DNA of 64,000 bases from Eledone cirrhosa (lineage: Eukaryota): assembly GCA_964016885.1 (NCBI GenBank), contig OZ024744.1, positions 34,472,001-34,536,000 of the forward strand, written 5' to 3'. Below, in pieces: positions 2,495 to 57,239 of the stretch (position 1 is its first letter; each line of letters opens with the position of its first letter). Under the pieces are notes generated by a model. The model did not search any database. It had not been told where the DNA came from and saw nothing but the letters and a program-made list of their open reading frames with translations. Position numbers and translations under genes: made by a program.

Positions 2495-2701
2495 TTGGTT
2501 AGTATTCAGTTTTGGTTTTAAGTTTTACCGGTTGCGCATTTCTAATGCTTTTCAAAAATAATTTTGAGATAGAGCGCTCGTGATGTTTGCTCTAATCAGA
2601 TAAGAGCAAACATCACGGGCGCTCTATCTCAAAATTATTTTTGAAAAGCATTAGAAATGCGCAACCGGTAAAACTTAAAACCAAAACTGAATACTAACCA
2701 A
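2495..2701. repeat. ~100-bp-arm palindrome with an HHR-like variant in each arm (plus copy 2638-2673)
   Basis: Arms are reverse complements around ~2598. Motif UUU-UUGAAAA-GCAUU/AAUGC-GCAA-CCGG-UA-AAA. Confidence 0.8.
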
Positions 2702-13951: not shown

Positions 13952-16480
13952 CGTGTGCGTGTGTGTGTTATTATACGTCCGTACGAAACTAAGAAGAAAT
14001 ATGTGTATATATGTAAGTAAAAGAGTGTGTGCTTGTAAGTACGAAGCTACGAGCAAGAGTATGTTAATATAAGGGTGTGTATATGTGTATACAGAGATGT
14101 GAAGGGAAAAATGGAGTGTGCATATTTAGTCGGTCTGAACTAGTTGTATGAAAAGATTTTTATGATCATGAGAGAGCGATAGGAATCTAGGGGTGAATGT
14201 ACAAGCGCGTGTGATAATGGACGAGGTATTAAAGAAATTGAGGAGGTGAGTTGATTCCATGAGGGAAATAGGACCCAAGCCGGTGAATCAGACTCTGTTC
14301 AGTCCTGGTACGCGAGGCCTGTGATCCATGATGTTAAAGGACATCCAGGACTGAGACATGTAGGGAAGAATGACCAGGAGAACAGAAATAAAGGGCGACA
14401 GGAGTATCCATACCGAGTTGTATGTCCCTCAAATGCTCAGCAAAACGGTCCGCCGTACGGCGTCCCATTTATCCGATGTTTAAAGACCCGCAAAGGGAAC
14501 ACCGGAGGGCATAGACAACGTACGTGGATGTTCACGTGAAAGAGTGGCAGATACGGAAAGACCCGTTAGGGCCTGTAAGAGTGGTGAGGGTGGAAATAAA
14601 GGGACAAGTGTTGCAGCGGGGACGAGAACAAGGATAAGAGCCGGGTGGAGTCGTGGGAGAGGACGAGAAGGACCTGCGTACAAGGAGGTCGTGGAGGTTG
14701 CAGGTGTACTTAGATGCAGTAATGGGTGCGTTTGGAAAAAGCGAGAAGTGACGGAAATAGGATATGGAGTGTTTGGTGAGAGTTGGATGGAAGAAGGTGA
14801 AGTCGAGGTAAGAGTCGTAGTCTGTTGGTTTATAGAAGATGGAAGTAGAGAGGGTGTGGTGAGAGTAATTGATAGATAGATAGATATCTAGAAAAGGGAC
14901 AGAAGAATCGGAGACGGAAGTGGTGAAGGTGAGAGCAGGATGGAAAGATAGGACAAAAGATAGAAAACAGTCGAGGTGTTCTCGTTATAGAGAGGTGGTG
15001 CCGATACAGTCGTCGATATAACGACCGTATAGCTCAGGAGTCGGTCCAGCGTACTGGGGGAAGATCTGGGCTTCGACGTAGCCAACAAACAAGTTGGCAT
15101 ATTTTGGTCCCATTTAGGTTCCCATCGCTACTCCAGACACCTGCTGATAGAATTGCCCCGAAAAGGATAAGCGATTGAGAGTCAGAACAAGCTCAGTCAG
15201 ACGGGGAAGAATGGTAGTGCTGGGGTAAGGGGTGGTGTAAGGCTAAACAATGCTGGAGAGCGCGGAGACCGTCATCATCAGGGATGACGGTATAGAGGGA
15301 GGTGATGTCCAGGGTAAAGAGAAGGGGAGAGGAGCCAGGAGGGAAGGAGAAGGAGTTGAAGAGCCTAATGGCATGATTGGTATCCTGGATGTGGGAGGGA
15401 AGATTGCCGACCAACAGGGCGAGGATGGTGTCTAAATATTCAGAAATTATCTCGGTGGGGCAGTTGCACGTAGAAACGATAGAACGGCCAGGATTATTTT
15501 GTTTGTGTATTTTGGGGAGGAGGTAGATGGAGGGTGTCCGAGGGGTGCGTACAATAAGGTTGGTGGCTGTGAGGGGTAGGTGAGATGAGGAGATGAGCTG
15601 GTCGATGGTGGAGGACACGAGTTGTTGGTAGCCAGCAGTGGGGTCGGAGAATAAAGGACGGTAAAAAAGGGTATTGTGAAGCTGGCGGAGAGCCTCAGCC
15701 CTATAGGGGTCAAGGCTCCAAACCACCACATCGCCACCTTTGTCAGCGGGTTTGATGACAATGTCATCGCGACGCCGAAGGTTGCGAAGAGCGGAGAGCT
15801 CAGTCCGCGTGATGTTGGAGTGACGAGAATGCTGGTGGAAACGGAACCGATTCCCAGTACGCCGTCAAGTATCGACAAAGGAGTCGAGGGTGCTGAACTG
15901 GCCAAAGCTCGGTGTCCAATGTGATTGCCAGCGACTGAGACGAGTGAAGTCATCCGTCTGTGTCGATGATGGCGTGTCGTGAAAAATAGCTTTTAGCTTT
16001 AATCGAGGGAAGAATCTTTCAATCTCGGCACGTGTACGGAACTCGTCGCAGGTAGATGTGGTTAGTATAAAATACAAACCACGGGCGAGGAGGGGGCGCT
16101 CAGCTTCGGAGAGTGGTAGGTGCTGGGGTATGATGACTACAGTGCAGGGACGTGAGGGCGTGAAAGGGGCGGAGGCGGAGGGTTTAAGGTGGATAAGCAA
16201 AGCGTGTGCAGATTCAGTGGTGGGGAGAAGAAAGGGGGTGGTAGGTGACGGGATGGAGGGGTTAGGGTTGGAGGTGAAATTAGTATGGGTGGTGACGTCA
16301 GGCGGGGAGCGGAGTGAGTGGAGTTTGTTGTTTTTTATGGAAGTGAAGGAAATTGAAGAGGAGGCGATTGAGATAAAGGATGAATTGGATAAGGGATTCG
16401 GCGAGGGTGGGGGTGGGGGGTGGCAAGTAGGGGAGAGATGGAGGCAGGCCTTGGGGAGATGTATCTATATCACACACACA
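13520..16480 (-). mobile_element. Degenerate PLE (Neptune-like) with RT, GIY-YIG, 3' UTR and pLTR
   Basis: IYLLPKIHK..PGRSIVSTCNCPTE, LFTLDITSLYTVIP, GVAMG region near 15120-15135, GIY-YIG near 14400-14520. Degenerate HHR at 13603-13641 (CUUGUGA-A-GGAC/GUCC-GAAACGUC). Confidence 0.85.

Positions 16481-17596: not shown

Positions 17597-17600
<4 letters not shown>
16850..17600 (+). mobile_element. Retrozyme-like family B partial tandem (448-bp period) with a short inverted 5' piece; HHR at 17339-17379
   Basis: AAGGTGACGTGGTTGCC occurs at 16955 and 17403. HHR CAAUG-CUGACGA-...-GAAA-CUAG-UA-CAUCG. Confidence 0.8.
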
Positions 17601-17629
<29 letters not shown>

Positions 17630-17735
17630 CTAATTTCTGCCGGACCGGCAACCGCTCTTTCAAACCAGTTCCTGTACACAGCTAAGTATTCTATAAGTCT
17701 CTAGCTGTGTCATTCTCGATAAAAGCACTGGATAT

Positions 17736-17778
17736 GTAGTCCTGATGAATTCTAACAAGAATGAAACGCGTAGATTAC
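17736..17778 (+). ncRNA. Minimal type I HHR (family A, copy 1)
   Basis: GUAGUC-CUGAUGA-AUUCU-AACA-AGAAU-GAAA-CGCG-UA-GAUUAC. Cleavage predicted after A17772. Confidence 0.9.
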
Positions 17779-18045
17779 TTCCCTTGCTTTTATCGAGAAT
17801 CTAATTGTAATACGTGACGTATTCTATTCTATAGCGATTAGGTCTTCAAAATGTTTATTATAAACATACAGAATATTTTCGAATATTCTATGTCTATATT
17901 CACATATATATCGCTATTTCAGAGCATTTATTCCAATTTCTAATTTCTGCCGGACCGGCAACCGCTCTTTCAAACCAGTTCCTGTACACAGCTAAGTATT
18001 CTATAAGTCTCTAGCTGTGTCATTCTCGATAAAAGCACTGGATAT

Positions 18046-18088
18046 GTAGTCCTGATGAATTCTAACAAGAATGAAACGCGTAGATTAC
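18046..18088 (+). ncRNA. Minimal type I HHR (family A, copy 2)
   Basis: Identical to 17736-17778. Confidence 0.9.
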
Positions 18089-18355
18089 TTCCCTTGCTTT
18101 TATCGAGAATCTAATTGTAATACGTGACGTATTCTATTCTATAGCGATTAGGTCTTCAAAATGTTTATTATAAACATACAGAATATTTTCGAATATTCTA
18201 TGTCTATATTCACATATATATCGCTATTTCAGAGCATTTATTCCAATTTCTAATTTCTGCCGGACCGGCAACCGCTCTTTCAAACCAGTTCCTGTACACA
18301 GCTAAGTATTCTATAAGTCTCTAGCTGTGTCATTCTCGATAAAAGCACTGGATAT

Positions 18356-18398
18356 GTAGTCCTGATGAATTCTAACAAGAATGAAACGCGTAGATTAC
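18356..18398 (+). ncRNA. Minimal type I HHR (family A, copy 3)
   Basis: Identical to 17736-17778. Confidence 0.9.
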
Positions 18399-18520
18399 TT
18401 CCCTTGCTTTTATCGAGAATCTAATTGTAATACGTGACGTATTCTATTCTATAGCGATTAGGTCTTCAAAATGTTTATTATAAACATACAGAATATTTTC
18501 GAATATTCTATGTCTATATT

Positions 18521-18583
<63 letters not shown>

Positions 18584-18588
<5 letters not shown>

Positions 18589-19627
18589 ATTAAATAAATG
18601 GAAAACTATATTTATAAAACCATATTTATTTCATTATATATATTTCGGGGATATCATATTAACAATATGCTATGCCTTCATCAGACAAAATACAATATAA
18701 ACAGTTTTATAGATAAATATATTCGACATACCGTAATAAACATCAACTTCATTTGAAGAGGTTCACTCTAGCAGTGAAAATACAGAGAGAAAGAAAGAGA
18801 GAGAGAAAAGAGGGAAATAAGAAAGAAAGAAAGACAAAACGAAGAAAAGGAAGAAAAAGAAGAAAAAGAAGAAATGCATGGGACAAAATAGAGAGATGGA
18901 AAAATAGATAAAGCGAAGAGCTTCATGTAAAGAGACCGAAAGAGATATATATATATATATAGAGAGAGAGGAAATAGAGATAGATACATATATAAATATA
19001 GATATAGAAAAATTATAGATATAGAAAAATTAGGTAGTGGGAGGTCATTTTGAGTAAGTGTATCAATGATGCATTTATTTATTTATTTATTTATTTATTT
19101 ATATATTTAGCTCAAGTATTAATGTAAGGGAGATATATAGAGAGATATAGAGAGATATAGAGAGATATAGAGAGAGAAAAATTTAAAATTTAAAATTTTT
19201 CTATATCTATATTTATATATGTATCTATCTCTATTTCCTCTCTCTCTCTCTATATATATATATATCTCTTTCGGTCTCTTTACATGAAGCTCTTCGCTTT
19301 ATCTATTTTTCCATCTCTCTATTTTGTCCCATGCATTTCTTCTTTTTCTTCTTTTTCTTCCTTTTCTTCGTTTTGTCTTTCTTTCTTTCTTATTTCCCTC
19401 TTTTCTCTCTCTCTTTCTTTCTCTCTGTATTTTCACTGCTAGAGTGAACCTCTTCAAATGAAGTTGATGTTTATTACGGTATGTCGAATATATTTATCTA
19501 TAAAACTGTTTATATTGTATTTTGTCTGATGAAGGCATAGCATATTGTTAATATGATATCCCCGAAATATATATAATGAAATAAATATGGTTTTATAAAT
19601 ATAGTTTTCCATTTATTTAATATTGTA
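18584..19627. repeat. Inverted repeat with ~430-bp arms, each with a type I HHR (18627-18692 minus, 19518-19583 plus)
   Basis: Arms are near-exact reverse complements. UAUUUUGU-CUGAUGA-AGGCAUAGCAUAUU..AAUAUGAUAUCCCC-GAAA-UAUAUA-UA-AUGAAAUA. Confidence 0.85.
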
Positions 19628-19717
19628 AATATACTCCAAGTATTTGTCGAGTGCTTTTATATCAGTTATAAATATTTACTAGTTGTAACCCAACAATTTT
19701 AAATATAACTTTACATG

Positions 19718-19754
<37 letters not shown>

Positions 19755-19987
19755 TCAGAGTTAAGAATAATGTAAATAAATTACAGAGGTTATTGAAATC
19801 AACAAAAATTAAATAAATACATGCACGCATCCATATATGCCTATACACATGCATACGCGGAAACACCCGCCATGGGTATGCAAATACAAGCACGTACAGA
19901 AAAATACGCGCGCACATACAGAACCCACGCAACGCCTGTACCCGCACACATACGAACGTATACACCAAATACACATAAAAACATATA

Positions 19988-20028
<41 letters not shown>

Positions 20029-20134
20029 CACCAACAATGTCGAGCATAATAAGAAGAAGCTTTATAAGTTTTTTAAAAGCTATAACCTTTCGATCACGAT
20101 AGATAGAAATGATAGAGCGGTCAACTTTTTAGAT

Positions 20135-21604
20135 GTGACTTTGGACTTGGTCACCAATAGTTTTAAACCCTTCCATAAGCCTAATGAAATACTTTCCTAT
20201 GTTAGTCCCAATTCTAACCACCCCAAATCTATGATAAGCTCTATAATTAAGGGTGTATCTAATAGGATTTCCACACTCTCTAAGGACGTAGGAACATTTA
20301 ATGAACATGCGGAGTACTATAATAATGCCCTAGCAAATTCCGGTTACTCTAGTAAAATACATTATAATAATAGTAACCTTAGAAAGTCTCCGCTTATTTT
20401 TAATAATAATAACATAATATCACATAACATGGCCATGAATGGGAGTAGGAAGCATAATAACCGTAAAAATTACATAGGTGTATCTGAACCCATCCATAAG
20501 TTAACCCACGGGACTCGTAATAGTGAATATAATACCTCTAGGAAACAAGTCGAACCCTCTGAGCGCTCACTCATTGGTGATAATTTTGCCGGATCTTATT
20601 CTAATAATGTTGCTTCTACTGATCCTATTATTGGCCCTAATCCTTTTGATGGGATTCCGGACAGCGGCAGATCTACTGGAGGTAGAAACGGTAATAGACT
20701 TAATGGAATTTTGGCTGATTCTAAGAATGCGGTTTTAACTAATCCTTGTAGTAACCCTAGTCTCGATGGTGGGATATTTGATAATGGTAGAGTCGGTAAG
20801 AATAAAAATAGAAGGCGATTAAATACTTATTTTAACCCGCCATATAATCAGGAAGTATTAACTAATATCCCTAGGTCTTTCTTTTCTATCTTAGAGAAAA
20901 ATGTCCCCCCTTCTCATAAATACCATAGTATTTTTAATAAAAATGTTATTAAACTTTCATTCTCTACCACCCCTAATATTAGTTCTCATTTAGCTAGCAC
21001 TAACAATAGGAAAATTAGGGATGGATTCTCCTCTCTACATACTACTAGTCTGAACAGATCTGGAAATGCATTACCACCAGAACAGACCTTATCTAATAGC
21101 AATCCTACGTGTAATGCATCACCACTTGAGCCAACCAATAACACCCGGAAGTGCAACTGTAGAGTGAGTGCTAACTGCCCTTTAAACGGTAACTGCCTCT
21201 TTAAGAACATTGTCTATGCTTGCATAGTTATAACTAATTCCTCTAATAGAACTTATATCGGCTCTACATCTAACACTTTTAAGACTAGGTTTAACTCTCA
21301 TATCTCTAATTTCAAACATGTTAAGTTTAAGAATTCTACTTCTTTAGCACATTATATCTGGGATCTTAAGGGGGCTAATATACCATATAGCCTTAACTGG
21401 CGTTTAGTAGCACGCTCTAATAACCTTTCTACACATACTAAATTTTGTAATCTCTGTATCCTCGAGACACACTCTATAATTTTCTCTAGCGAATCCTTAC
21501 TTAATAGAAAGTCTGAGATATTCTCTTCTTGCCCCCACGCTATTTCTAATTCATACTTTTATTATAAACCTAAAGGTTCTAGTAGTACAAATTGTATCCA
21601 TTAG
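20135..21604 (+). CDS. PLE RT C-terminus and GIY-YIG endonuclease, open over 489 aa
   Basis: FLDVTLDL..FHKP..SNHP; YFNPPYN; CNCR..CPLNGNC; IVY..TYIGSTSNTFKTRFNSH; CNLCILE; LLNRKSEIFSSCPH. Confidence 0.9.
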   Translation: MTLDLVTNSFKPFHKPNEILSYVSPNSNHPKSMISSIIKGVSNRISTLSKDVGTFNEHAEYYNNALANSGYSSKIHYNNSNLRKSPLIFNNNNIISHNMAMNGSRKHNNRKNYIGVSEPIHKLTHGTRNSEYNTSRKQVEPSERSLIGDNFAGSYSNNVASTDPIIGPNPFDGIPDSGRSTGGRNGNRLNGILADSKNAVLTNPCSNPSLDGGIFDNGRVGKNKNRRRLNTYFNPPYNQEVLTNIPRSFFSILEKNVPPSHKYHSIFNKNVIKLSFSTTPNISSHLASTNNRKIRDGFSSLHTTSLNRSGNALPPEQTLSNSNPTCNASPLEPTNNTRKCNCRVSANCPLNGNCLFKNIVYACIVITNSSNRTYIGSTSNTFKTRFNSHISNFKHVKFKNSTSLAHYIWDLKGANIPYSLNWRLVARSNNLSTHTKFCNLCILETHSIIFSSESLLNRKSEIFSSCPHAISNSYFYYKPKGSSSTNCIH

Positions 21605-23075: not shown

Positions 23076-23587
23076 TTTATTATATGTGCTACTTATAATA
23101 ATATCATATTATTACCTCATGTATATTGGGTATATGTATTATTATTATTATTATTATTTTCATTCCTATCATGCTTATTTATATTTAAACTCTTAATAAG
23201 GTTTAATTTGTGCAGTTGAAGATGGATATGTGTATTGATGTATGTGTATGTGTGCGTACGTGTGCGTACATATATACATATGTATATTGTACCTTTTAAT
23301 TTTTATTGTAATTTTAATATTGGTAAAGGTATATTATATTATATTACATTGTATTATATATAATTCCTGCTCTATATAACCACCTTTGTTTAGCTCTAGG
23401 GTTTTTTTGCTTTGGACTATATTTGTAATATGGTTCTTAATGTTATACACCTCCTTAGTAATTTTTATTATATATTTTTATTATATATTTTTACCCATAA
23501 TCTTGCAATACTTTAGTGTATGTACACTCCATATTCTTCGGAGTTTCCGGCTTGTATTGGCCGATAATACTTCTTGTTGTTTTAATT

Positions 23588-23625
23588 GCCCTGATGAGTC
23601 CTTAATAGGACGAAACATTGTCGGC
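23588..23625 (+). ncRNA. Minimal type I HHR in a PLE pLTR
   Basis: GCC-CUGAUGA-GUCCU-UAAU-AGGAC-GAAA-CAUUG-UC-GGC, followed by AATAAA. Confidence 0.92.
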
Positions 23626-23687
23626 TAATAAAGACTTTTGATGTATTGAAGGCTTCTTTGTTTTATTTTCTTAATTCTTAATTTCTT

Positions 23688-24189: not shown

Positions 24190-26470
24190 CGTTAGCGTAT
24201 AATGTGGGGCTGTAATACAGGAAAGTTTTGTGCAATTTATGTTTACAAGTCGAAATTGCCTCAGACTTTTTGTTTAAGATGTGGTCATTGGCGTAGAGTA
24301 TTCCAGGGCTTCAGCCGCGCAGAGGTCACATGGTCTTTTATTTCCATTATACGATCTAGCCTAAGCTAGGATGTCCCAGTGTAAATTATATTGGGTGTGG
24401 TTGTCTTTTAGACTCCAGATATAAGCTGAAAGTGACGTCATATTCCTTCTTAAACGGTTAAGAAAAGAATGGGTATGCATGTAAAGACGCTGCTTGAATC
24501 TATTGGCGGTTAACCCCATGTAGACCCTACGGGACGTGGGTGTTTCAACCTTACAATGTTACTAGAGAGGCCTTTCCCCGATAGGGGACAGTCAACCTGA
24601 TTCCTACAATTACAGTTAGTATTAGCTACAGGGTTGCACGTGTTCCTACGGCTAGGTAATTTAGCTAAATTTGAAGCTGTGATGTCATGTGCAAGGTTAG
24701 GAGTTGTAGAGTAAGAACTTTTAATGGTATTTCTATTAAAAATTTTACTATATTTATGTGCTGGGGGAAATGCTTCATAATAAGGGAGAGAAAGATCTTA
24801 GCTAATGGTCTGGCCACCTCCATATTATATGGTGGGTTATACCATATAATGCGTCGGGATCTATTTTTCCTAGGTCTATTCTCATACTCGGTATATGCTA
24901 CCTTATCGACAAATCCTCTCCGAGCAAGAGCTTCATTGTAATATGTGGAATGGTCGGTGAAAATATGCTCGTTTGTAGATAGACGGGAAAGCCTCAAAGA
25001 GACGTTTCGTACCAGGTTCTTGGTTATGCTGGCAGGATGGTTAGAATGCTTACTTATGTAATTAATCGTATCATTCGGCTTTCTATACGACAAATTGAGG
25101 GTAACGTCGAAGTAATTAACGACCGCGAGGTTGGCCTCAACCTGTATGGAGAGGTTGAAGCCTTTAAAGAAGGCTGTGAGTTCCTTTCTGAACCTGTCGC
25201 AAGCATGTGGGCCGCACTTTGTCATGGACAAATGACCGTCATCAGTGTACAAACCACCGCCCACATTGGGGAATTCTTCCTTGATAGAGAAAAGAAGGAA
25301 ATGGCCGATAAGATCAGTAACCTCCGCAGAATCGCTGGCGCCCATACTCACGTCGAATGGGGTACTATTAGATTTTTTAAATCCAAATAGAGTCGTAGAT
25401 ATTAATCACCAACTTAGGGGTATTGAGGATGACATCAACTTCGAAATCCTTAACCACTGTGAGTGTTTTAGCGAAATTGATAGCTCTAAGGAGAAGTGGT
25501 AAAGTGATGGATGAGTAGTAATTATTGATGTCGAATTGGATAAAACGGCAATGTTCCTTGTTGCATATGCCGTCGAACCAATCAATCACCGCGAAAGAAT
25601 TATTCCACAGTGCAAGAGGAGCCAAACTTCTAATTTCAGGTATAATTCTATCTAAAATCCTTTTACTAAGTTTACCTAAATCGGACTTCGTAGGGTTAAT
25701 AAGCCGAATAGAGAGGTTGTTCGGGAAATTGGATTTGTGATCCTTCAGGGTAAAAGTGGGGAGAAATAGGGTCGAGAGGTTCAGTCCGGTCCAGGATGTT
25801 GAGATCAGAGGTGATTTTAAAACCAGCATCGTTGATGTCATTAATGGCGCTCCGATTAGTTTTACGGTAATCCTTAGTTATAGCATTATGTAGCAGTTGA
25901 TGGTGAGTACTCCGCTCCATTTGATATAGATTGCCAGTTTTGTCGGAGTGGACGTGCACGGCATTAGAATCCTTAATAGAACGAATTCTATTCTTCAGGT
26001 CCTGCTGGAAGGAATTGCTCCTATACCGAAATTTGATACTCCGTATGAGTTCCAAGACATCATTTTCGAAGGGTAGCAATGCTGGGTTACTCGGAGGGTT
26101 ATTGTAGTTTTTAAACCCAAATTTATCCTGTTTGTTGTCCGCTTTTCCCTGATTATCGAAATAAAGGGCACGCCAACGCAACCTTTTAATGAACGCGTCT
26201 GTTTTCTGTATCAGGAGTTTTAGGTATGTTTTCCTGATTGGTACGGGTATGTTCTTTGTAGAAATATTCAGATGTTGTTTCTGCATGATGAATATAAGTC
26301 AATAGAGGAGATACCGTTTTCAGATAGAGCCCCCCCCCCCCCACACACACACATATATATATAGTAAAATAAAACAAGGACGAATGGTTACTCCTTCATT
26401 ACGTTTATTGGTAGGTGACGCGCGTTTCGCCGCGGATCAGCTCAAGGTTCGATCTGTATCGATCTAGCCC
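24190..26470 (-). mobile_element. Near full-length degenerate PLE (Nematis-like)
   Basis: STKNIP..FIKRLRWRA; HSDKTGNLY; TLKDHK..RLINP; FIQFDINNYYSSI; MGASDSAEVTDLIG; LYTDDG; WYNPPYN; GIY-YIG near 24250-24610. The 3' half of an HHR (GAAACGCGCGUC..AAUAAA) lies upstream at ~26404-26432. Confidence 0.9.
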
Positions 26471-27878: not shown

Positions 27879-28972
27879 AGACACGGGGGAAGAAAAAATG
27901 GCTTCACTTGTGCTTTCAACAAATTTATTTTCTTCACAAAATCCAAAAAGAATTTTTTTCCGGATTAGAAAAAAAATTTTTCTTAGAAAAAAATGTTTTC
28001 TTAGAAAAAATTATTTTATAAATTAAGTTGTTGGTTGTTGGTTAGGTCTTAGGAGTTCTTGGTTAACGTAGGAGGTATTGTTTCGTTTTTAGAACGACCT
28101 TTCACGCTGAGGTGCGCTTGTCAAACTGATGTGTATGTGGTGTGTTGTTCTATATATAGGGATTTAACATGTCTGTGGTGTGGTGGGGGCTTCTTTTCTC
28201 CCCCTTTAATAAGTGTATGGGTGTAGGTGTGTTGAAAAAGTGTTAAGAGCAGTAATGAGTTGGACGGTGAGTAGGGTTGGGTGGGGAGAAATGTAGCAAG
28301 TGCGGCCTGTCCCGGTCATTCTAGAAAAATTCCTTTATTCAGGGGAAAAAAGCTTTTAGTATTCCTTTTGTGTTGAGAATGGTCACAGGCAAATCGCACC
28401 TGTCAATTTTGTAAATAATTATTTTTTTATTTTTTTATGAAGAATTTTTCTACGTCCATCCCAAAATTAGTCCTTTGTTCAACACACACATATGTGCGTA
28501 TACACGTACATACACACACGGGCATATGTAGGAATATATAGGCACACACCATCAATCACACACCCATGTACAAATACATCCACATACATACACAAAAACA
28601 TATAGAGACACATATAAAAACACATATACACATACGTATTCAAAGAATTCTTCATTGAAAAATTTAAACCTCTACTGAACACGAAAAAATGAATTAACAC
28701 TCGGAGGTACAATTCCATTTCACTACCCCCCCTCCTCTTCTTATGTGTACACATGAATATCTGAGTGAACGGTGAGACACACACATATGTGTGTGTAGGT
28801 ATGTATGGATGTATGTACGTGTGGGTATATATGTATGTGGGTGTGTGTATGTGTGTGTGTGTATATATATATGTATGGATGTGTGTATGTTTGTATGTGT
28901 GTGTGTATATATATATATGTATGTGTGTATATGTATGTATATGTATATGTATGTGTATGTTTGTATATATAA

Positions 28973-29011
<39 letters not shown>

Positions 29012-29159
29012 TAGATAGATATATATGTTTATGTGTGTGTGTATGTATATGTATGTACCTATATATATGTGTGTGTGTGTATGTATGTGCATATATGTAT
29101 ATATGTGTGCACATATGTGTATATTTCTGTATGTGTATATGTATGTATGTATGTAGATG

Positions 29160-29262
<103 letters not shown>

Positions 29263-29353
29263 ATGTATATATGTGTCTTTATGTGCTCGTGTGTACACAT
29301 ATATATATGTATGTATGTATGTGTGTATGTATGTGTGTGTATGTATATATATG

Positions 29354-29385
<32 letters not shown>

Positions 29386-29387
29386 TA

Positions 29388-29666
29388 TATTTCGTTTCTG
29401 AATTTGTTTAGCAAGATTCATTATCTGAAATCGTGTGTTGAAACCGATATTGTTATACTTTGGGAGGGTCATGTTGCCAATAAGAAACACACGCACCAGT
29501 TGCTTTCACTTCAATTTATTATATATTTATATCTGGTTGTGGAACCAACCAACCAACCAGAAATTTATAAATTTGTAAATTTGTAAATTTATAAATATAT
29601 AATAAATTGAAGTGAAAGCAACTGGTGCGTGTGTTTCTTATTGGCAACATGACCCTCCCAAAGTAT

Positions 29667-29672
<6 letters not shown>
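29388..29672. mobile_element. Fold-back fragment of the Naiad-like pLTR
   Basis: 29448-29520 and 29598-29672 are inverted copies matching 950-1022 and 13272-13370. Confidence 0.8.
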
Positions 29673-29732
<60 letters not shown>

Positions 29733-30072
29733 ATGTATGTGTATGTGTGTATGTGTGTATGCATGTACGTGTATGTGTATGTATGTATATATATATATAT
29801 GTGTATATATATATGGATATATATGTATGTGTATATGTATGTATATGTGTGTATGTGTCTGTATGTGTTTATGTGTACATATATGTATATATATATGTTT
29901 GTATATATATATATATAAAAAGGGCAAAGGAGCAAAAGAGCTCTTAAGGGTCAAAGGGCAAAGGGCAAAGGGTCAAAGGGTCAAAATGGCAAAGGGAAAA
30001 GGAGCTCTTAAGAGTCAATGGCCATCCAAAATCACTGGGAGAGATGACCCCTTAGCCTTTATCAAGGCAGAA

Positions 30073-30548
<476 letters not shown>

Positions 30549-30565
30549 GCCTCTCTCTATATATG

Positions 30566-30612
<47 letters not shown>

Positions 30613-30693
30613 ATGTGTGTGTGTGTGTATGTGTGCGTGTATGTGTATATATGTATATTTAGTTATGTATCTTTATGTGTGTATATGTATGTG

Positions 30694-30742
<49 letters not shown>

Positions 30743-30781
30743 ATATATGTGTATATGTGTGTATATGTATATGTATGTGTA

Positions 30782-30831
<50 letters not shown>

Positions 30832-31621
30832 CATGTGGAGGTATGAGTACATATTCGTGTGTGTACGTATGTGTATATGTGTTTTTATATGTGTCTATAT
30901 GTTTTTGTGTATGTATGTGGATGTATTTGTACATGGGTGTGTGATTGATGGTGTGTGCCTATATATTCCTACATATGCCAGTGTGTGTATGTACGTGTAT
31001 ACGCACATATGTGTGTGTTGAACAAAGGACTAATTTTGGGATGGACGTAGAAAAATTCTTCAGAAAAAAATAAAAAAATAATTATTTACAAACTTGGCAG
31101 GTGCGATTTGCCTGTGACCATTCTCAACACAAAAGGAATACTAAAAGCTTTTTTCCCCTGAATAAAGGAAGTTTTCGAGAATGACCGGGGCAGGCCGCAC
31201 TTGCTACATTTCTCCCCACCCAACCCTACTCACCGTCCAACTCATTACTGCTATTAACACTTTTTCAACACACCTACACCCATACACTTATTAAAGGGGG
31301 AGAAAAGAAACCCCCACCACACCACAGACATGTTAAATCCCTATATATAGAACAACACACCACATACACATCAGTTTGACAAGCGCACCTCAGCGTGAAA
31401 GGTCGTTCTAAAAACGAAACAATACCTCCTACGTTAACCAACAACTCCTAAGACCTAACCAACAACTAACAACTTAATTTATAAAATAATTTTTTCTAAT
31501 CCGGAAAAAAATTCTTTTTGGATTTTGTGAAGAAAATAAATTTGTTGAAAGCACAAGTGAAGCCATTTTTTCTTCCCCCCTGTCTTAATATATCTAACTC
31601 TACCAAGGATTACACACATTT

Positions 31622-31706: not shown

Positions 31707-32960
31707 CAGGTCGAGCGGAGGTGGCGAACACTTTCATAGCGTCCGTCATCTACTACCGCTTGACCGTCGTGCCTTGTCCCCTTGAATACCTCACCAAGAT
31801 GGAACGCATGCTCTTTCAGTTCCTTCAGAAGAAGCAGGCTCCACTGGTGAGGAGATCCGTCTGCTGCTGTCAGCACCTTTCTAACGGAGGGCTGGGAATG
31901 CCGTGGCTGATGATGCGCAAACACGCGCTGAGGCTACGGCATCTCCAGGTATTCCTCATCGAACAACCGATGTGGGCCCCGTTTGTGAGACAGGCCTTCC
32001 CGCAACTTATCTCGCTGATGGAGCCGCAGTCCTGGGTCAAGCATTGAATGCGCTCAGGCGCTCACAGTCCTCTTTCAAGCGGGCACAGCAATCAGTGGAG
32101 ACTCCACTTCGACATTCTGTAAAAGGTTAGTACGTTACCAGTACTACGACGTGCTCGGCGAGACTCTGGGCGTCGAAGACGACGAGCTCACCAGTCTGTC
32201 GGTAGGACTTTCCGCCCGGGACCATGGACAACTTCCAGAGGCCCCTGGCCTGGCAGTGCTACCGAGGAACTCTACCAGTTCGAGACAAGATCTACAAGCA
32301 CGGACGCCCCAGCAGGGATCCTTCTAAGTGGACGTGTCTAAGATGCGAGCAGGACATTGAAACCGTCTTGCACGTAATTGTACACTGCCCGGGTGTAACC
32401 GACCTGTGGAACTACGCGGAACAACTGCTGTCGCGTATGGGACAAATCCAGTTGACTGCCGAGTCCATAGTAAGGATCAAACCGCCAACCTCCTTCAAAA
32501 ACGAAAGAGAGGCGGTTTTCCTCTGTACAGTGGCTATGGTGAAAGAGGTTATATGGTGGACGAGATTGAGAGGACTGGGGACAGATGCCTTTCTCTCCGG
32601 ACAACTCATTCCCTTCTTTAGGTACCACTTTAGAAGGAGAATCAGAGTGGAGAGAGAGGCACTGCACCCCAGTAGATTTACTGAAAGGTGGGTGAATGTA
32701 GCAAAATGGCCCGAGTATATAAACCTAGTTGAAGAAGAGAACAAAAGGAAGAAAGAGCACTTGCACAACACGCTCTTGGAGTTGAGGGTTGTTCTATCTA
32801 CGGCGTATTAAACAACCCATCTGTAACGCCTCCCCCCTATTGGGGATTTCGATTGTTGAATTTGTTTGTTTAAAATTTTTTTACACGAAATCTATGTAAA
32901 ATCCCCGGCATATGTCCTTGTATTGTCCCCTTTTGTTGTGCGCCCTTGTGTCAAATAAAG
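31707..32960 (+). mobile_element. 5'-truncated L1/Tx1-clade LINE (ORF2 C-terminus, disrupted)
   Basis: RAEVANTFIASVIYY, GGLGMP, CLRC..ETVLHVIVHCP zinc knuckle. 3' UTR with AATAAA. Confidence 0.85.
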
Positions 32961-36868: not shown

Positions 36869-36892
<24 letters not shown>

Positions 36893-36899
<7 letters not shown>

Positions 36900-37338
36900 A
36901 TGTAAATATAATGTATTTTGCAATACACTTTATGCTTAATTAAAAGCATTTTGAAGACCGTAAGCTATTGTTTTAAAGTAGTGACAAATTCACTCACTTC
37001 GATCTCAGCAAACAGGAGGAGATAAGCCGACATGACATGTTTCGCTTTTGTTGAAGCTTATCAAGGCCAACTACCCCGCCCGTCTGCTGAGATCAATGAT
37101 GTTATATTCTTATAGAAATCTAGCAAATAATCAGGAGCTGATTATGCAGAGCGGGGTAGTTGGCCTTGATAAGCTTCAACAAAAGCGAAACATGTCATGT
37201 CGGCTTATCTCCTCCTGTTTGCTGAGATCGAAGTGAGTGAATTTGTCACTACTTTAAAACAATAGCTTACGGTCTTCAAAATGCTTTTAATTAAGCATAA
37301 AGTGTATTGCAAAATACATTATATTTACATCCATATAT
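36893..37338. repeat. Inverted repeat with ~185-bp arms, each with a U3-A8 HHR (37025-37068 minus, 37162-37205 plus)
   Basis: GGCC-UUGAUAA-GCUU-CAACAA-AAGC-GAAA-CAUGUCAUG-UC-GGCU. Confidence 0.85.
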
Positions 37339-37361
37339 ATATTGCTATTTCAGAGCTACAA

Positions 37362-37471
<110 letters not shown>

Positions 37472-37914
37472 AACATACATACATACGCAGATACATACAT
37501 GCATGCATACATCTACACGCACATATACATGTAGATGCATAAATACATGATGGCTGCAACTCAATTTCGAGTTATGCCATCGCTTAATATTTTAGCATGA
37601 ACATCACGGACGCGGTATTTTAGTCCTGCTAGGGCCTACTGCTAGCCTAGCCATGCAATGCAAAGGATGTCACATATCAAGCCATGTCTGTGCTTGAAGC
37701 TTTTTTAAGTGAGGAAAGGCTTTGCACGGAGCCAATCCCACTCTCTGAATATCGAATGTATTTGCCCAATGAAGTCACAAGTTTTATATCTGTGAGACTT
37801 TCTCCCAATGAAGACTGGGGTCTCTCACTCCACTGCCCCACTAAAAATACATATCGACATATATACATCATACATGCAAACATAATGTAAAATATACAAT
37901 CCTGCTCAAAGACC

Positions 37915-38535
37915 CATGCGTCGCCTGGAATCGAACTCAAGATCATATGATGGTGTCTCACTAAAATACACGACCCCATACATGCATGTACATACGTACA
38001 TAGATACACACATATTCATATATACATACATATATATACATACGGATATAAATTCATACATACGTGCATACATACAATCCGTAGAAAAGATAGCCCCGAT
38101 AATTAAAAGCTACAGCAATGTGGAAGACATACATATACATAATTGTTTCTGCTTTAGGCACAAGGCCAGCAATTACCCCAGTGCATTACTGGTACTTTAT
38201 TTTATCGACCGCGTAAGGATGAAAGGCAAAGTTAACCTCGGCGGGATTTGAACTCAGAATGGCAAGGGCCGTAACTCTATACGTCAAAGCATGTGCCTAA
38301 AGTAGAAACAATTATGTATATGTATGTCTTCCACATTGCTGTAGCTTTTAATTATCGGGGCTATCTTTTCTACGGATTGTATGTATGCACGTATGTATGA
38401 ATTTATATCCGTATGTATATATATGTATGTGTATATGTATATGTGTGTATCTATGTACGTATGTACATGTATGTATGGGGTCGTGCATTTTAGTGAGACA
38501 CCATCATATGATCTTCAGTTCGATTCCAGGCGACG
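37915..38535. repeat. Inverted repeat (~240-bp arms) folding back around a minus-strand SINE (38140-38292)
   Basis: 37915-38160 versus 38295-38535. The SINE tail is included in both arms. Confidence 0.85.
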
Positions 38536-38536
38536 T

Positions 38537-38646
38537 ATGGAATGTTCCAGTAAAAACCCCAATAAAATGCAGGCATAACAGACCAGATATAATGGTATGG
38601 GACAGGGAAAAGAAGACATGCACAATAGTGGAAGTTAGGTGCCCAG
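38537..38646 (+). pseudogene. Fragment of a restriction-like endonuclease domain from an R4/Dong-type LINE
   Basis: WNVPVKTPIKCRHNRPDIMVWDREKKTCTIVEVRCP. Confidence 0.65.
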
Positions 38647-38649
38647 TGA

Positions 38650-38995
38650 GTGTGTGTTTATTTATTCATATGTTTATTTACTTGTCACTAGTTGGTTGAT
38701 TGTTCTATCTGTGTGTGCTGGTTTATTTTATTAGTTTAGTTTTTGTGTGTGTCTGTATGTCTTCATTTTGTCCTTAGTTACTAGTTGTGATGTTGCTATT
38801 CCACTCATGTTTTCTGTTTAATTTTGGTTGGAGTTTGTTTATATTTATCGCATCTGTGATTTGTCTAAGCATTGCATCTTTTCTGTGTGTGGATATCATC
38901 AACATACTGATTGCAGATTTAGTAAGAGTGATGAGGAACGTGTCCTGCATGTGAAATCCTAAAGAATCAGAGAGTCACAAATATCACTTCATCCA
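38650..38995 (-). mobile_element. Naiad-like PLE 3' fragment (minus) joined to an inverted upstream piece (plus, 38895-38995)
   Basis: 38690-38890 resembles 12180-12380. 38895-38995 resembles the reverse complement of 12997-13100. Confidence 0.75.
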
Positions 38996-40560
38996 CCGCC
39001 TACTGAAGGTATACGGAAGTTTCACAGGAGCGAAGCTGAACCGGGACAAGTCCATCGGTTTGCAACTCGGATCGTGGAGAGGCAAACCGATGCCTTCCGA
39101 TGGCGTCGTCGGACGCTGGACGGAAGGACCAGTAAAGCTGCTCGGGGTCTGGTTTGGTCCGGACCTCCAGGTGGAGAAGAACTGGAACGAAGTGACGGCC
39201 AAGGTGTTTGCACTCACCCAGAAGTGGGCCGAGTGCAAACTATCATTGAAAGGTCGAGCGGAGGTGGCGAACACTTTCATAGCGTCCGCCATCTACTACC
39301 GCTTGACCGTCGTGCCTTGTCCAGCCAAAACGCTTGCCAAAATGGAGCGCGCACTCTTCCGATTCCTTTGGAAGAGGCGGGCTCCTTTGGTGAGAAGATC
39401 CATCTGCTGCCAACACCCTTCTAACGGAGGGCTGGGGATGCCGTGGTTGACGATGCGCAAACACGCGCTCAGGCTGCGGCATCTCTACTTATTCCTCACC
39501 GGACAACCGGTGTGGGCCCCGTTCGTGAGGCGAGCCTTCCCACGACTCGTCTCGCTGACCGAGCTGCAGTCCTGGGTCAAGCAAAGACCGAGGAAAATGG
39601 GCGACTGGCACATCGAATGTGCTCAGGCGCTCACAGCCCTCTGGCAGGCGGACCCGGCGATCAGTGGAGACTCCACTTCGTCATTCTATAGAGGGTTGAT
39701 CCGCAGCAAGTGCGACGACGCGCTCGGTGAAACTCTAGGCGTAGAGGAAGATGAACTGGCAAGTCTGTTCGGTAGGACCTTCCGCCCGGGACCGATGGAC
39801 AACTTCCAAAAGTCCCTGGCCTGGCAGTGCTACCGAGGAGCTCTACCAGTTCGAGACAAGCTCTACAGACATGGGCGCCCGGGCAGGGATCCTGCAAAAA
39901 ACATCTGTCCGAGGTGCGTGCGAGACGAAGAAACCGTCGCGCACGCATTCATACACTGCCCGAGCGTCACTGACCTGTGGGGCTATGTAGAATGACTATT
40001 GTCGCTGGTGGGACCAATCCAGTTGACCACCGAGTCCATTGTCATGATCAAACCGCCACCCTCCTTCAAAAACGAAGGAGAGGCGGTTTTCCTTTGTGTG
40101 ATAGCTATGGCGAAAGAGGTTGTATGGTGGACAAGGTTGAAAGGGCTGAGGTCAGACACCTTTCTCTCCGGCCAACAACTGATTCTTTTTTTCAAATACC
40201 ACTTTGGAAGAAGAATCAGGATGGAGAGAGAGGTGCTGTACCCCAGCAAGTTTTATGAAAGGTGGGTGAAAGTGGCGAGAATGGCCCGTGTGAATGGGCC
40301 TTCTCTCTATATCAGCCTGTAGGTTGAGGAAAAGGAGGAGGAGAGGAAAGGAGTACAAACTCTTCGTACTCCTGGAGATGAGAGTTGCACATTTTTTTTC
40401 GTGGGTATGTGTTACCCATATAAACTGTCTCCCTCTATTGGGGAAAATCGACTAACTTTTTAAATTCCATTTGTGATAACATTTTACACGTTTTTATTGT
40501 ATGTAAACTTCCCCTTTGTATTTGTCCCCTTCTTTTGTGCCCCTGTGGCTAATAAAGAAA
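38990..40560 (+). mobile_element. 5'-truncated L1/Tx1-clade LINE (RT end to 3' UTR) with one in-frame stop at 39993
   Basis: TGAKLNRDKS, LLGVWFGPD, LSLKGRAEVAN, GGLGMP, CPRC..EETVAHAFIHCP. AATAAA at 40551. Confidence 0.9.
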
Positions 40561-44379: not shown

Positions 44380-44415
44380 CTTTACCGGTTTCGCAGTTCT
44401 TCTGCTTTTCAAAAG
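44380..44415 (-). ncRNA. Minimal HHR with a U3-A8 core in a dispersed repeat (44243-44520; second copy 56305-56520 has a GUG triplet)
   Basis: CUU-UUGAAAA-GCAG-AAGAA-CUGC-GAAA-CCGG-UA-AAG, then AATAAA. Confidence 0.72.
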
Positions 44416-52137: not shown

Positions 52138-52922
52138 AAAGTATATATATATATGCACACGTACATATATATATATACATATATATATACACACACATCT
52201 ATATATATATATGTATTGAAATTTCCGTTGAAAATAGAAAAGGTCATAGAAGTGAAGAGTGCTCTATGTAAGTACCAGAGCAAAATTTAATGTATAAAAA
52301 TCAATACAATATAATTACCTCATTACCAGAGGTTTCCCGAATGAGGCGAATACGAAAGAAACGTCTTCATTCGTTCGTCAGACGAGGCAATATAAAACAT
52401 GGGTAAATACTTGGAAAGTCTCATCAAGAAAAGCAAAATATATATATATATAGACAAATGAATTACAATATGAAATATATAAAAATCTTTCAAGAAATAT
52501 AGTTAGGTGTGTGTATATGTATGTATATACGCTCACAGATGTGCATATATGTGTATGCACAAATATATACGTATAGTGAAAAAGTGTGCGTAAATATATA
52601 ATTTAGGGCAAATGTATCTGTGCGTCTGTAAACTACAGACAGAATAGATACATCATAAGAATATGAAGGCACGCGCATAAACACACCTACACACACGTAC
52701 ACTTATATGCGGAAGTAAAAGAGGTAAGGGAGTGTAGTAATTAAAGGAAAGTATCAATCTCGATATATTTATAAAAATGGAACAATAATTTAGAAAGAAA
52801 AAATTAAAGAAAAGACAAACAAGGTACACGCATACACACACACGTATATCTCACAAAAGAAACACAAAAATATACATGCTTATATACACACGCACACTTA
52901 CACATCCATACATTCGATACGT

Positions 52923-52976
<54 letters not shown>

Positions 52977-54004
52977 TTACACTCACGCATATTGACCTGT
53001 TTGCATGCACACGCATAAAAATGAGGATGTAAAAAAAGGGATGAAGAAAAAAAGAAAACAAAAAACCTAGATGTAAAAACACGGATATAAAGACACATAC
53101 ACATACATATATATATATATATACACGCACGCGCGCGCACATACGTAGGCGCTCGTGTACATATATAGAAAGTATACACACATTAAGGCGTTCAGACACA
53201 TAGATACAGGGTGTAAAAAACTTGAGGATAAGTATTTACAAATATAAAATTATAAGATTGGCTGCGCAAAAAAAAAAAAAAAAAAAAAATATCTGGAGTG
53301 GAAAACGCAAGTGCCTAGTTTAATCAGTTAGTGAAGAAAATAGGGAAGTAAAAAATGGAAAGTGAAGATATTAGGTAAGTGAATCGGAGAATAGCCGTAT
53401 ATACAATGGCTTTGGTGTTGCATTTACATTGTAAAGGGCATTCACTTTTGATTCTACAGGAGCAATTTTGATTTTCTCTAGGTGATTTTTTGTTGATGAT
53501 ATAGGACTCACCAAAGCCATTGTATATGCGGCTAAAGTGACAACCATCAGCAACAACCATCCAGCCACCAATGAACGATATGTGGGTATGACGCAAGACA
53601 AATTCAAAACGCATTATTACTCACATGTCGCATCCTTTCGACATCCAGAAAAAAGATTTACAACAGCTCTGGCTAGCAGAATTTGGGATTTGAAAGACCA
53701 AGGCATCCAATATAAATTGGATTGGTCAATTTTGAACCAATCTAAAGAATATGCAAGAGGAACAAGAAAATGCACGCTTTGCATAAATGAAAAATATTGG
53801 ATCTTGCAAAATAGTAAATCACCAAAGACCTGAACACAAAGACGGAAATTTTCACCAGTTGCCCACACATGAAATCACACCTGCTTTCCAGCTCATATAA
53901 ACTTAGCACACTTTCAGATACTTCTCCTCCATAAACTCTTATTATTCTCTTTATAATTACACTTTCTGATTTACTTTCATTTTTATCCTTATTATTAATT
54001 TCAT

Positions 54005-54852
54005 TTATTTTTATTTTTATTTTTATTTTTATTTTTATTTTTATTTTTATTTTTATTTTTATTTTTATTTTTATTACTTTTATTTTTATTTTTATTTTTA
54101 TTTTTATTTTTATTTTTATTTTTATTTTTATTTTTATTTTTATTTTTATTTTTATTTTTATTTTTATTTTTATTTTTATTTTTATTTTTATTTTTATTTT
54201 TTTAATTTTAATTTTAATTTTAATTTTTATTTTTATTTTTATTTTTATTTTTATTTTTATTTTTATTTTTATTTTTATTTTTATTTTTATTTTTATATAT
54301 CTTTTATTTTTACTTCACATCCACCAATAACCCCCCCCCCCCTTTATTCTCTGATTCACTTACCTAATATCTTCACTTTCCATTTTTTACTTCCCTATTT
54401 TCTTCACTAACTGATTATGAAGGTCACTTGCGTTTTCCACTCCAGATATTTTTTATTTTTATTTTTATTTTTATTTTTATTTTTATTTTTATTTTTATTT
54501 TTATTTTTATTTTTATTTTTATTTTTATTTTTATTTTTATTTTTATTTTTATTTTTATTTTTATTTTTATTTTTATTTTTATTTTTATTTTTATTTTTAT
54601 TTTTATTTTTATTTTTATTTTTATTTTTATTTTTATTTTTATTTTTATTTTTATTTTTATTTTTATTTTTATTTTTATTTTTATTTTTATTTTTATTTTT
54701 ATTTTTATTTTTATTTTTATTTTTATTTTTATTTTTATTTTTATTTTTATTTTTATTTTTATTTTTATTTTTATTTTTATTTTTATTTTTATTTTTATTT
54801 TTATTTTTATTTTTATTTTTATTTTTATTTTTATTTTTATTTTTATTTTTAT
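54005..54852. repeat. (TTTTTA)n tracts with a ~150-bp local duplication (54300-54455 / 54857-55005)
   Basis: Direct reading. Confidence 0.9.
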
Positions 54853-55326
54853 ATAACTTTTATTTTTACTTCACATCCACCAATAACCCCCCCCTATTCT
54901 CCGATTCACTTACCTAATATCTTCACTTTCCATTTTTTACTTCCCTATTTTCTTCACTAACTGATTATACTAGGCACTTGCGTTTTCCACTCCAGATATT
55001 TTTTATTTTTATTTTTATTTTTTTATTTTTGCGCAGCCAATCTTATAATTTTATATTTGTAAATACTTATCCACAAGTTTTTTACACCCTGTATCTATGT
55101 GTCTGAACGCCTTAATGTGTGTATACTTTCTATATATGTACACGAGCGCCTACGTATGTGCGCGCGCGTGCGTGTATATATATATATGTATGTGTATGTG
55201 TATGTGTCTTTATATCCGTGTTTTTACATCTAGGTTTTTTGTTTTCTTTCTTTTTTCTTCATCCCTTTTTTTACATCCTCATTTTTATGCGTGTGCATGC
55301 AAACAGGTCAATATGCGTGAGTGTAA

Positions 55327-55390
<64 letters not shown>

Positions 55391-55924
55391 ACGTATCGAA
55401 TGTATGGATGTGTAAGTGTGCGTGTGTATATAAGCATGTATATTTTTGTGTTTCTTTTGTGAGATATACGTGTGTGTGTATGCGTGTACCTTGTTTGTCT
55501 TCTTTTCTTTAATTTTTTCTTTCTAAATTATTGTTCCATTTTTATAAATATATCGAGATTGATACTTTCCTTTAATTATTACACTCCCTTACCTCTTTTA
55601 CTTCCGCATATAAGTGTACGTGTGTGTAGGTGTGTTTATGCGCGTGCCTTCATATTCTTATGATGTATCTATTCTGTCTGTAGTTTACAGACACACAGAT
55701 ACATTTGCCCTAAAATATATATTTACGCACACTTTTTCACTATACGTATATATTTGTGCATACACATATATGCACATCTGTGAGCGTATATACATACATA
55801 TACACACACCTAACTATATTTCTTGAAAGATTTTTATATATTTCATATTGTAATTCATTTGTCTATATATATATATATTTTGCTTTTCTTGATGAGACTT
55901 TCCAAGTATTTACCCATGTTTTAT

Positions 55925-56002
55925 ATTGCCTCGTCTGACGAACGAATGAAGACGTTTCTTTCGTATTCGCCTCATTCGGGAAACCTCTGGTAATGAGGTA
56001 AT
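55925..56002 (+). ncRNA. Type I HHR in a PLE pLTR (inverted twin at 52314-52391)
   Basis: AUUGCCUCGU-CUGACGA-ACGAAUGA...UCAUUCGG-GAAA-CCUCUGG-UA-AUGAGGUAAU, with a 10-bp helix I. Confidence 0.9.
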
Positions 56003-56024
56003 TATATTGTATTGATTTTTATAC

Positions 56025-56084
<60 letters not shown>

Positions 56085-56300: not shown

Positions 56301-57239
56301 TATATAAAGAAAAAAAGGATGAAATCGAAAATGCAACTGGAGTCTTATTTAAAAAAATATATATATATTTATTTGGTTCCTTCACCGGTTTCGCAGTTCT
56401 TCTGCTTTTCAAAAGTAGAGTTGAGATGGAGGGTCTCTGGTTTTTCTCACATCTGTGAGAAAAACCACTCGTGAAGGACACCTCGGTTATTTTTCATTTT
56501 GTAAAAAACCTCACTTTCCAATAATATATATATATATATAGGCATACACTCACATGTATACATATGTACGTATGGCTTATATCGAACATTAATAATTATG
56601 TTCGATTCGTTTGTAAATAAACGACCTGATTTGAAGCTGTGTTGTGCCGGTGACTGATTGTTTTCCGTACAAAATCCCGCGAATTCCACAAGGGTCAAGA
56701 GTGAAGAAAAATAAAGCTATTTGCTTTATGGGGGTGTATAGGTTTCCTTGCATGGCAACAGAAACTGTTCAAAGATGTTTCTTGATATGATAAGTGGATT
56801 TGATGTAAGATCTTCATCTTTATATATCCCATCTAAACTTATGCTTATAGTTTACATTACGGAAACTTTGTAAAAAGGCTTTTTACCTCCATGCTAGAAA
56901 TGCTGCTAGCGATGTTAGATTGCCGTAAAATATCTCTGAATTCAACGGATTGTCATATATCATATCCCTCTGATGTATATTTCCTTTTGATACCATTTCG
57001 TTGTTTAGCGTTTCTATCAGTATATGTATTGATTCGTAAGATTTTAGGTCGAAGGAGCTTATATTGAGTCTTTGCATAGTCAAAGATGTATACTAGTCTG
57101 CACTCTCTTCCTATGAATGGGCTAGGCCTCTTTAAGAAATTTCTCAACGAGGAGCAAGTCTGCTTTCTGGACGCTTGGGATAGATGGGGCGCCTTTCATA
57201 ATTCAAAGGGCGCGGGAGGGTTATTTTTTATTTTCAAAT

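Follow-up and report, generated by a model that had tools for sequence, protein, structure and literature searches.

We analysed a window of 64,000 nt from the Eledone cirrhosa genome (GCA_964016885.1, an assembly of 3.0 Gb; contig OZ024744.1, 34,472,001–34,536,000), in which microsatellites and retroelement fragments are abundant. Read from the sequence, all five sites flagged in the initial annotation are type I hammerhead motifs with a U3-A8 pair, as it had described, and a mirror copy of the family A motif on the minus strand is a further one (Table 1). In the plus-strand motif of family A, helix I (GGCC/GGCU) leads into the core UUGAUAA (37166–37172), followed by helix II (GCUU/AAGC) enclosing CAACAA, a GAAA box, a near-palindromic helix III and the GUC triplet. 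N3-UGAN-N8-A, GAAA and NUH boxes around three helices are present in family A (37162 and 37068) and in family B at 44380. The G17 of the second B copy (GUG instead of GUA), absent from the initial annotation, is a private change, of a kind reported to lower rates 8- to 100-fold (PMC3884650). Both family C motifs combine UUGAAAA, helix II GCAUU/AAUGC, ACCGGU and a helix I of three A-U pairs with a GCAA box.

Table 1. Hammerhead motifs, their host insertions and neighbouring elements in the window (positions count from its first nucleotide).
Feature	Position	Strand	Remarks
Whole family A insertion	36888–37367	–	two partial copies of the 317-nt unit, within (TA)n
Family A hammerhead	37162–37205	+	U3-A8, GUC triplet, predicted cut after 37201
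Family A mirror hammerhead	37005–37090 (core motif 37025–37068)	−	full extended helix I; identical motif
Family B hammerhead	44380–44415	−	UUGAAAA, GCAG/CUGC, GAAA, ACCGGU, GUA, 3-bp helix I; host, truncated terminal repeat of a Neptune-type Penelope-like element
Family B hammerhead copy	56380–56415 (56383)	−	as 44380 but G17, GUG triplet
Family C hammerhead-like motif	2638–2673	+	U3-A8 and A13C; host, truncated terminal repeat of a sister Neptune-type element
Family C mirror motif	2523–2558	−	within inverted repeat 2495–2701
Three canonical C3-G8 hammerheads	17736–18398 (cores 17742, 18052, 18362)	+	310-nt tandem repeat homologous to family A
Canonical C3-G8 type I hammerhead, another family	23588–23625	+	comparison motif
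Penelope-like fragment	12260–13201	−	
Penelope-like fragment	14532–16464	−	
Penelope-like fragment	19979–21604	+	
Penelope-like fragment	24665–26298	−	
Helicase-like frames	4053–8512	+	broken; motifs resemble what we take to be a Helitron Rep/PIF1-type helicase
LINE-like fragments	32206–32811 and 38955–39995	+	presumably resembling C-terminal LINE (L1/Tx1-like) ORF2
Long inverted repeat	28001–31499		arms 630 nt
Long inverted repeat	52285–56031		arms 531 nt
Long inverted repeat	18577–19633		arms 436 nt
Long inverted repeat	37914–38540		arms 249 nt

A relaxed structural scan of 664 kb including the window, with any base permitted at positions 3, 8 and 13, returned 31 matches: 20 with C3-G8 (13 of them from one tandem family), 10 with U3-A8 (7 with GAAA, 3 with GCAA) and 1 with C3-A8. 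Reversed sequence gave 0 matches, and two block shuffles gave 3 and 1. The hammerhead matches in these 664 kb are not chance. An Rfam scan of the window, which at relaxed E values was dominated by microRNA matches driven by microsatellites, gave two hammerhead matches among the 150 of 333 listed, HH9 at 37006–37083 on the minus strand (31.1 bits) and Hammerhead_1 at 23585–23629 on the plus strand (31.7 bits), both below the gathering score. Individual copies in the window are truncated, mostly locked in hairpins and probably inert.

The Penelope-like element (PLE) fragments of the window resemble at least three different types; GIY-YIG scored below the curated cut-off in both of the PLE-like frames scanned. 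In other loci the type at 12260 is followed by a C3-G8 hammerhead some 200 nt further downstream. Whole-window repeat finding was dominated by simple repeats, and its inverted-repeat list alone was used. The arms of the four long inverted repeats in Table 1 are 96–99% complementary, of the inverted-copy type, and gave no match to the type I hammerhead descriptor.

The family A insertion consists of perfect 192-nt inverted arms (36888–37079 and 37151–37342) and a 25-nt one-sided tail (37343–37367), and it holds no ORF of ≥150 aa. Its layout is that described for PLE insertions, an inverted 5'-truncated copy with a one-sided tail (Craig et al. 2021, PMC8557442). Because the inversion junction lies at about 37151, the plus-strand motif is missing the 5' strand of distal helix I; its fold z-score is 0.44, compared with −4.09 for the minus copy at 37005–37090 (0 of 200 shuffles). 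Read through, the insertion is predicted to fold into a single hairpin of −356 kcal/mol and, given this hairpin and the strand missing from the plus copy, the locus is probably inert.

Beyond the window, a DNA search for near-identical copies found family A as 317-nt tandem units in arrays and as inverted pairs inside (TA)n. An exact family A pattern with N at positions 3 and 8 had 537 matches genome-wide (control 0), and all of the first 100 listed carry U3-A8. Each tandem unit contains one type I hammerhead, as in non-LTR retrozymes, and family A looks like a young member of that class. A 317-nt back-joint was present in three of four public contig runs of unspecified kind, a signal that tandem DNA also yields. 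As a candidate autonomous partner, a distant PLE fragment lies upstream of 2 of 15 listed U3-A8 or mutant A-group copies, 1.2 and 2.2 kb off, which we found unconvincing.

Among 13 A-group copies, 12 of 27 pairs changed on both sides and 91.8% of cells were paired (0 of 500 shuffles; slid controls, 33–43% paired), with covariation touching helices I, II and III, although relatedness of the copies can inflate this signal. Helix II was 100% paired, with three of its four pairs covarying. The predicted minimum free energy (MFE) structure of the family A monomer is a rod (−7.9 kcal/mol) as opposed to the three-way junction (−5.9 kcal/mol), and its predicted homodimer is a double hammerhead. In the predicted homodimers of A and B, helix III formed between the two molecules while helices I and II were retained; the predicted homodimer of C was without helix I.

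Most A subfamilies seen carry U3-A8, and one sister subfamily (L292/L293; 78% over the 317-nt unit, with 317-nt spacing) carries C3-G8. A second C3-G8 relative, at another depth, is the 310-nt repeat at 17742–18362 in the same window (75–79% over 90 and 97 nt, E = 1.6e-17 and 1.5e-11). The A-group tree places two changes at the 3-8 pair and does not reject a single U3-A8 clade (p-AU 0.23), a result compatible with more than one number and direction of switches within this group. At 17600–18520 the 310-nt repeat has canonical hammerheads with A10.1-U11.1 at the base of helix II, and on the contig of the window, 400–416 kb from the start of the window, both this repeat and a 311-nt variant occur in long arrays.

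The remaining flagged sites belong to larger elements. In family B, hammerheads in direct repeats 4.7 and 5.0 kb apart flank 775-aa open frames (L230, L235), while in family C the motif occupies both terminal repeats around reverse transcriptase (RT) and GIY-YIG frames (L118, L119, L120). Pfam recognized RVT_1 in family C (E = 1e-6; 29.1 bits in L118, cut-off 29.6; 31.5 bits in L123) as well as GIY-YIG (E = 9e-8). Family B was assigned through its RT, which is 56% identical to that of C over 630 aa, and the terminal repeats of the two align. Judged from these frames and repeats, B and C are autonomous PLEs and sister families of the Neptune type. Both have a CX4CxxC linker before the endonuclease and copies that end in (TA)n, in line with the CX2-5CxxC linker and (TA)n insertion bias of Neptune, an assignment made by motif. 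The B and C motifs had been annotated as belonging to unrelated families, a description that does not hold; the helix II covariation noted between them (GCAG/CUGC versus GCAUU/AAUGC) is real, but it separates sister families. A relative, H, carries U3-A8, GAAA and ACCGGU and is nearer to C (dS 0.56) than B is (dS >2). Helix II differs among B, C and H yet remains paired.

A search for a C3-G8 sister of this ACCGGU Neptune group gave 101 matches (control 9), mostly from one family without a PLE endonuclease match upstream, and this candidate was set aside. Coding sequence in B and C is arranged as two overlapping frames, an N-terminal one of about 410–455 aa and the RT frame (L230:2288–5754, L118:7071–3421), with the break at the same site in many B copies (the 775-aa frames); this layout possibly reflects an intron or a programmed frameshift.

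We found U3-A8 in at least three lineages, namely the Neptune group B/C/H, family D and the A group, and also in families E and G. Family D lies about 300–390 nt downstream of a PLE endonuclease unlike that of B/C, which we take from its motifs to be Nematis-like. Its sister D' carries C3-G8 (endonuclease 49–64% aa), and two of the three U3-A8 lineages, A and D, therefore have C3-G8 sister families. In the family E group (L057/L131:8108, L246:4499, L293:2881), which combines U3-A8 with a long outer helix I, helix II covaries (GGAG/CUCC versus GGAU/AUCC).

At the nucleotide level A is not similar to B, C or D, and A and D each have C3-G8 sisters. A minimum of two double changes, in either direction, is therefore needed, and the pair has likely switched more than once. 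It is very unlikely, in our assessment, that U3-A8 arose once, or that one hammerhead moved between elements, with the compensated excess being pure inheritance and no ongoing selection at work. B, C and H do form one clade sharing U3-A8 and ACCGGU, copy counts are not independent and the A-group tree leaves room for one U3-A8 clade. Such an origin is, however, hard to reconcile with the dissimilarity of A, with a D endonuclease that has no blastp match to that of B at E ≤ 1e-3, with the two or more double changes and with the fact that no high-copy family among the matches listed is fixed in a mismatch. The presence of U3-A8 in three lineages, two of them with C3-G8 sisters, instead suggests that the 3-8 pair is likely under selection. 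The selection argued for in the initial annotation largely stands for the pair, but does not follow for activity in every family.

We then counted cores genome-wide with one fixed pattern (G10.1-C11.1 and C15.2-G16.2), using the reversed pattern as control. U3-A8 had 25,819 matches (control 515) and C3-G8 13,569 (control 60), compared with 402 for C3-A8 (control 142) and 312 for U3-G8 (control 214); purine-3/pyrimidine-8 combinations, with 359 matches against 653 in the control, showed no excess genome-wide. Watson–Crick pyrimidine–purine pairs therefore predominate at 3-8, and net single mutants amount to 0.9% of net matches. About 2 doubles would be expected from independent single mutations, as against about 25,300 found, although the copies are not independent. 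The mismatched matches listed are mostly scattered single mutants of both family kinds, together with two short local arrays and chance matches, and the first 100 matches listed for each of C3-A8 and U3-G8 include no high-copy family in which that mismatch is fixed.

This count, proposed in the initial annotation, came out as it had anticipated, but it is confounded: copies inherit the core of their master, and the family level weighs more. We do not claim that U3-A8 is the majority core of the genome. The pattern misses families such as the 310-nt repeat and counts some sites twice, and the 20 C3-G8 against 10 U3-A8 matches of the 664-kb scan speak against it. U3-A8 is not rare in these elements, contrary to what had been assumed, and about 1,300 matches were reported previously (Cervera 2014, PMC4209133). 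Nor had the variant gone unnoticed, having been retrieved in that study after its descriptor had missed it.

The family C pattern had 10,769 matches genome-wide (control 0), and the first 100 listed contain 97 GCAA, 2 GAAA and 1 GGAA, a departure from the invariant GAAA box with its A13. Both C subfamilies are fixed for A13C, as are the two terminal repeats of near-intact elements. In the RT frames of six C loci compared with L118, dS was 0.02–0.10 and dN/dS 0.16–0.38, which indicates that the C lineage went on replicating with A13C in place and diversified under purifying selection. The predicted hammerhead fold of family C is the poorest of those predicted (+6.5 kcal/mol, against −3.2 for the competing MFE hairpin). 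Family C is probably a crippled ribozyme, weak or silent, whose fold is possibly still used. Retention of U3-A8 alongside A13C and a poor predicted fold also means that the proposed selection for activity does not follow for every family; in addition, the G3-C8 swap alone restored cleavage in one published pairwise mutagenesis scan (PMC9901934).

A quite unlikely alternative is that the core of family C is new and active, with C13 either tolerated or compensated when U3-A8 is present. Fixation of A13C in both subfamilies and both terminal repeats would fit this, as would the invariance of the motif: subfamilies C1 and C2 differ in 0 of 32 motif columns compared with 26 of 240 flank columns (P of about 0.03, inflated by a ragged, poorly aligned 5' edge and less when that edge is left out), and in four of four public contig runs no alternative motif letter at ≥5% is listed except a loop indel, while the flanks vary. 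The same column counts, with the same inflation, weigh against reading C as silent. Position 13 is, moreover, altered in a C3-G8 family too. Against activity stand the helix I of only three A-U pairs and the competing hairpin, and A13 mutants would be expected to lose most activity. A13 has been regarded as an invariant core residue (PMC2837043), and the finding of A13U in a C3-G8 family speaks against specific compensation by A8.

That family is D' (L278–L287, for example L286:966 on the minus strand), in which GUAA replaces GAAA in 15 of 15 recovered copies, most of them picked for a non-A at position 13; a more distant relative in L082 has GAAA. By sequence, D' is a second lineage with a change at position 13. 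Across the genome, C3-G8 cores with a non-A at 13 showed no overall excess (250 matches, control 260), though families recur among the matches listed. Our literature search returned no natural family with an A13 substitution, a weak negative, with key core-variant papers outside its coverage. Taken jointly, these observations would allow the improbable reading that position 13 is not invariant in PLEs, with a Neptune family of more than 10,000 copies cleaving with U3-A8/C13, perhaps requiring its own protein, and with U13 used in a second PLE lineage. If true, U3-A8/C13 and U13 would be naturally occurring cores, assisted by protein, that fall outside the accepted consensus.

Several low-copy families (L288–L291, L294–L297 and L248–L275) carry a CUGANGA box and, next to it, a stretch that forms no hairpin but is complementary to the sequence beyond a GAAA-like box (GCAA, GUAA or GAAA/GGAA). 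Their motifs are possibly knotted or decayed hammerhead-like structures.

We also considered whether the U3-A8 motifs survive as structural relics that serve RNA folding or the binding of proteins, with 3-8 conserved for the fold and not for chemistry, and judge this unlikely. The 10,769 copies reached by family C, its diversification under purifying selection on RT with A13C in place, and the A13U of the D sister family (all 15 copies recovered, most chosen for this change) would all be accommodated. PLE hammerhead cleavage has been described as protein-assisted and dispensable for insertion in vitro, where hammerhead mutants were without effect and no reads ended at the cut site (PMC11167929). 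However, G12, A13, A14 and H17 are all kept in most families while all helices covary, and tandem retrozymes of other animals cleave and circularise (Cervera and de la Peña 2020, PMC7229834).

We consider it probable that the motifs are predicted self-cleaving type I hammerheads of PLEs, together with a short tandem repeat likely borrowing PLE enzymes, in which the 3-8 pair is U-A. A tandem or read-through transcript would bring two motifs together, the palindromic helix III would pair between them, and the dimer, probably aided by protein, would slowly cleave 3' of position 17 and so release RNA of unit length; the family A tandem repeat would likely depend on enzymes borrowed from PLEs. U3-A8 would have arisen more than once by two transitions, probably via a U-G wobble, in an AT-rich genome, and would have been kept because the pair must form. 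That U3-A8 is seen and not G3-C8 may be because both changes are transitions towards A+T. Family C would descend from a U3-A8, GAAA ancestor that then acquired A13C, its hammerhead becoming a probably weak or silent ribozyme, dispensable to the element. Other observations sit less well with this account: the preference of the family A monomer for the rod, a Saccoglossus PLE hammerhead with an uncompensated U3-G8 (PMC4209133, Fig. S3) and an exhaustive pairwise scan of a single type III hammerhead, in which C3G/G8C alone showed rescue in this region (Roberts 2023, PMC9901934). Because rescue in that scan came only from the G3-C8 swap, activity of U3-A8 depends on context.

Sister families about 80% identical that differ at 3-8 (A versus L292/L293; D versus D') and at position 13 (C versus H and B) form a useful test set, since they would permit a direct test of the need for cutting by PLE hammerheads, which low rates and dispensable cleavage in vitro have not settled. 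A census that insisted on CUGANGA and GAAA would overlook at least about 36,000 matches here, some sites being counted twice.

U3-A8 is already published, and our findings mostly extend the variant to new families. Natural U3-A8 covariation, earlier shown to be active in vitro, was described in several examples by Perreault et al. (2011, PMC3088659), where it is termed rare and where the position-13 variant is an insertion (U13a), not A13C or A13U. In Schistosoma PLEs, U3-A8 was missed by a first descriptor and then yielded the roughly 1,300 matches (Cervera and de la Peña 2014, PMC4209133). Fig. S3 of that paper prints UUGAUAA and UUGAAAA cores and pairs an S. mansoni U3-A8 motif with a near-identical S. 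japonicum C3-G8 counterpart; the GCAA core of family C is absent from the portion of the figure compared. The PLE hammerheads of that study, which cleave weakly and as dimers, resemble those described here, including the S. mansoni Cercyon U3-A8 motif: they are type I, occur in both terminal repeats and as solo and opposite-strand copies, and have a short palindromic helix III and a short helix I. Unlike them, the motifs here have no bulged nucleotide before helix II, and more than 25,000 U3-A8 copies extend across Neptune-type elements, a second PLE type and tandem repeats.

Families B and C resemble the Neptune clade (PMC8557442) in their C-terminal GIY-YIG, CX2-5CxxC linker, microsatellite insertion bias and inverted 5'-truncated copies with a tail, while the terminal-repeat hammerhead of C differs in departing from the GAAA box. 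Animal retrozymes have been tied to PLE terminal repeats (Li, Clavereau and Pollet, bioRxiv 10.64898/2026.07.22.740005), and metazoan non-LTR retrozymes have been proposed to be non-autonomous PLE derivatives (PMC7229834; 10.64898/2026.07.22.740005). Family A shares with these retrozymes its non-coding, AT-rich tandem units of about 300 nt with one type I hammerhead each, and is distinguished from them by the U3-A8 core of most subfamilies seen, with a C3-G8 sister subfamily.
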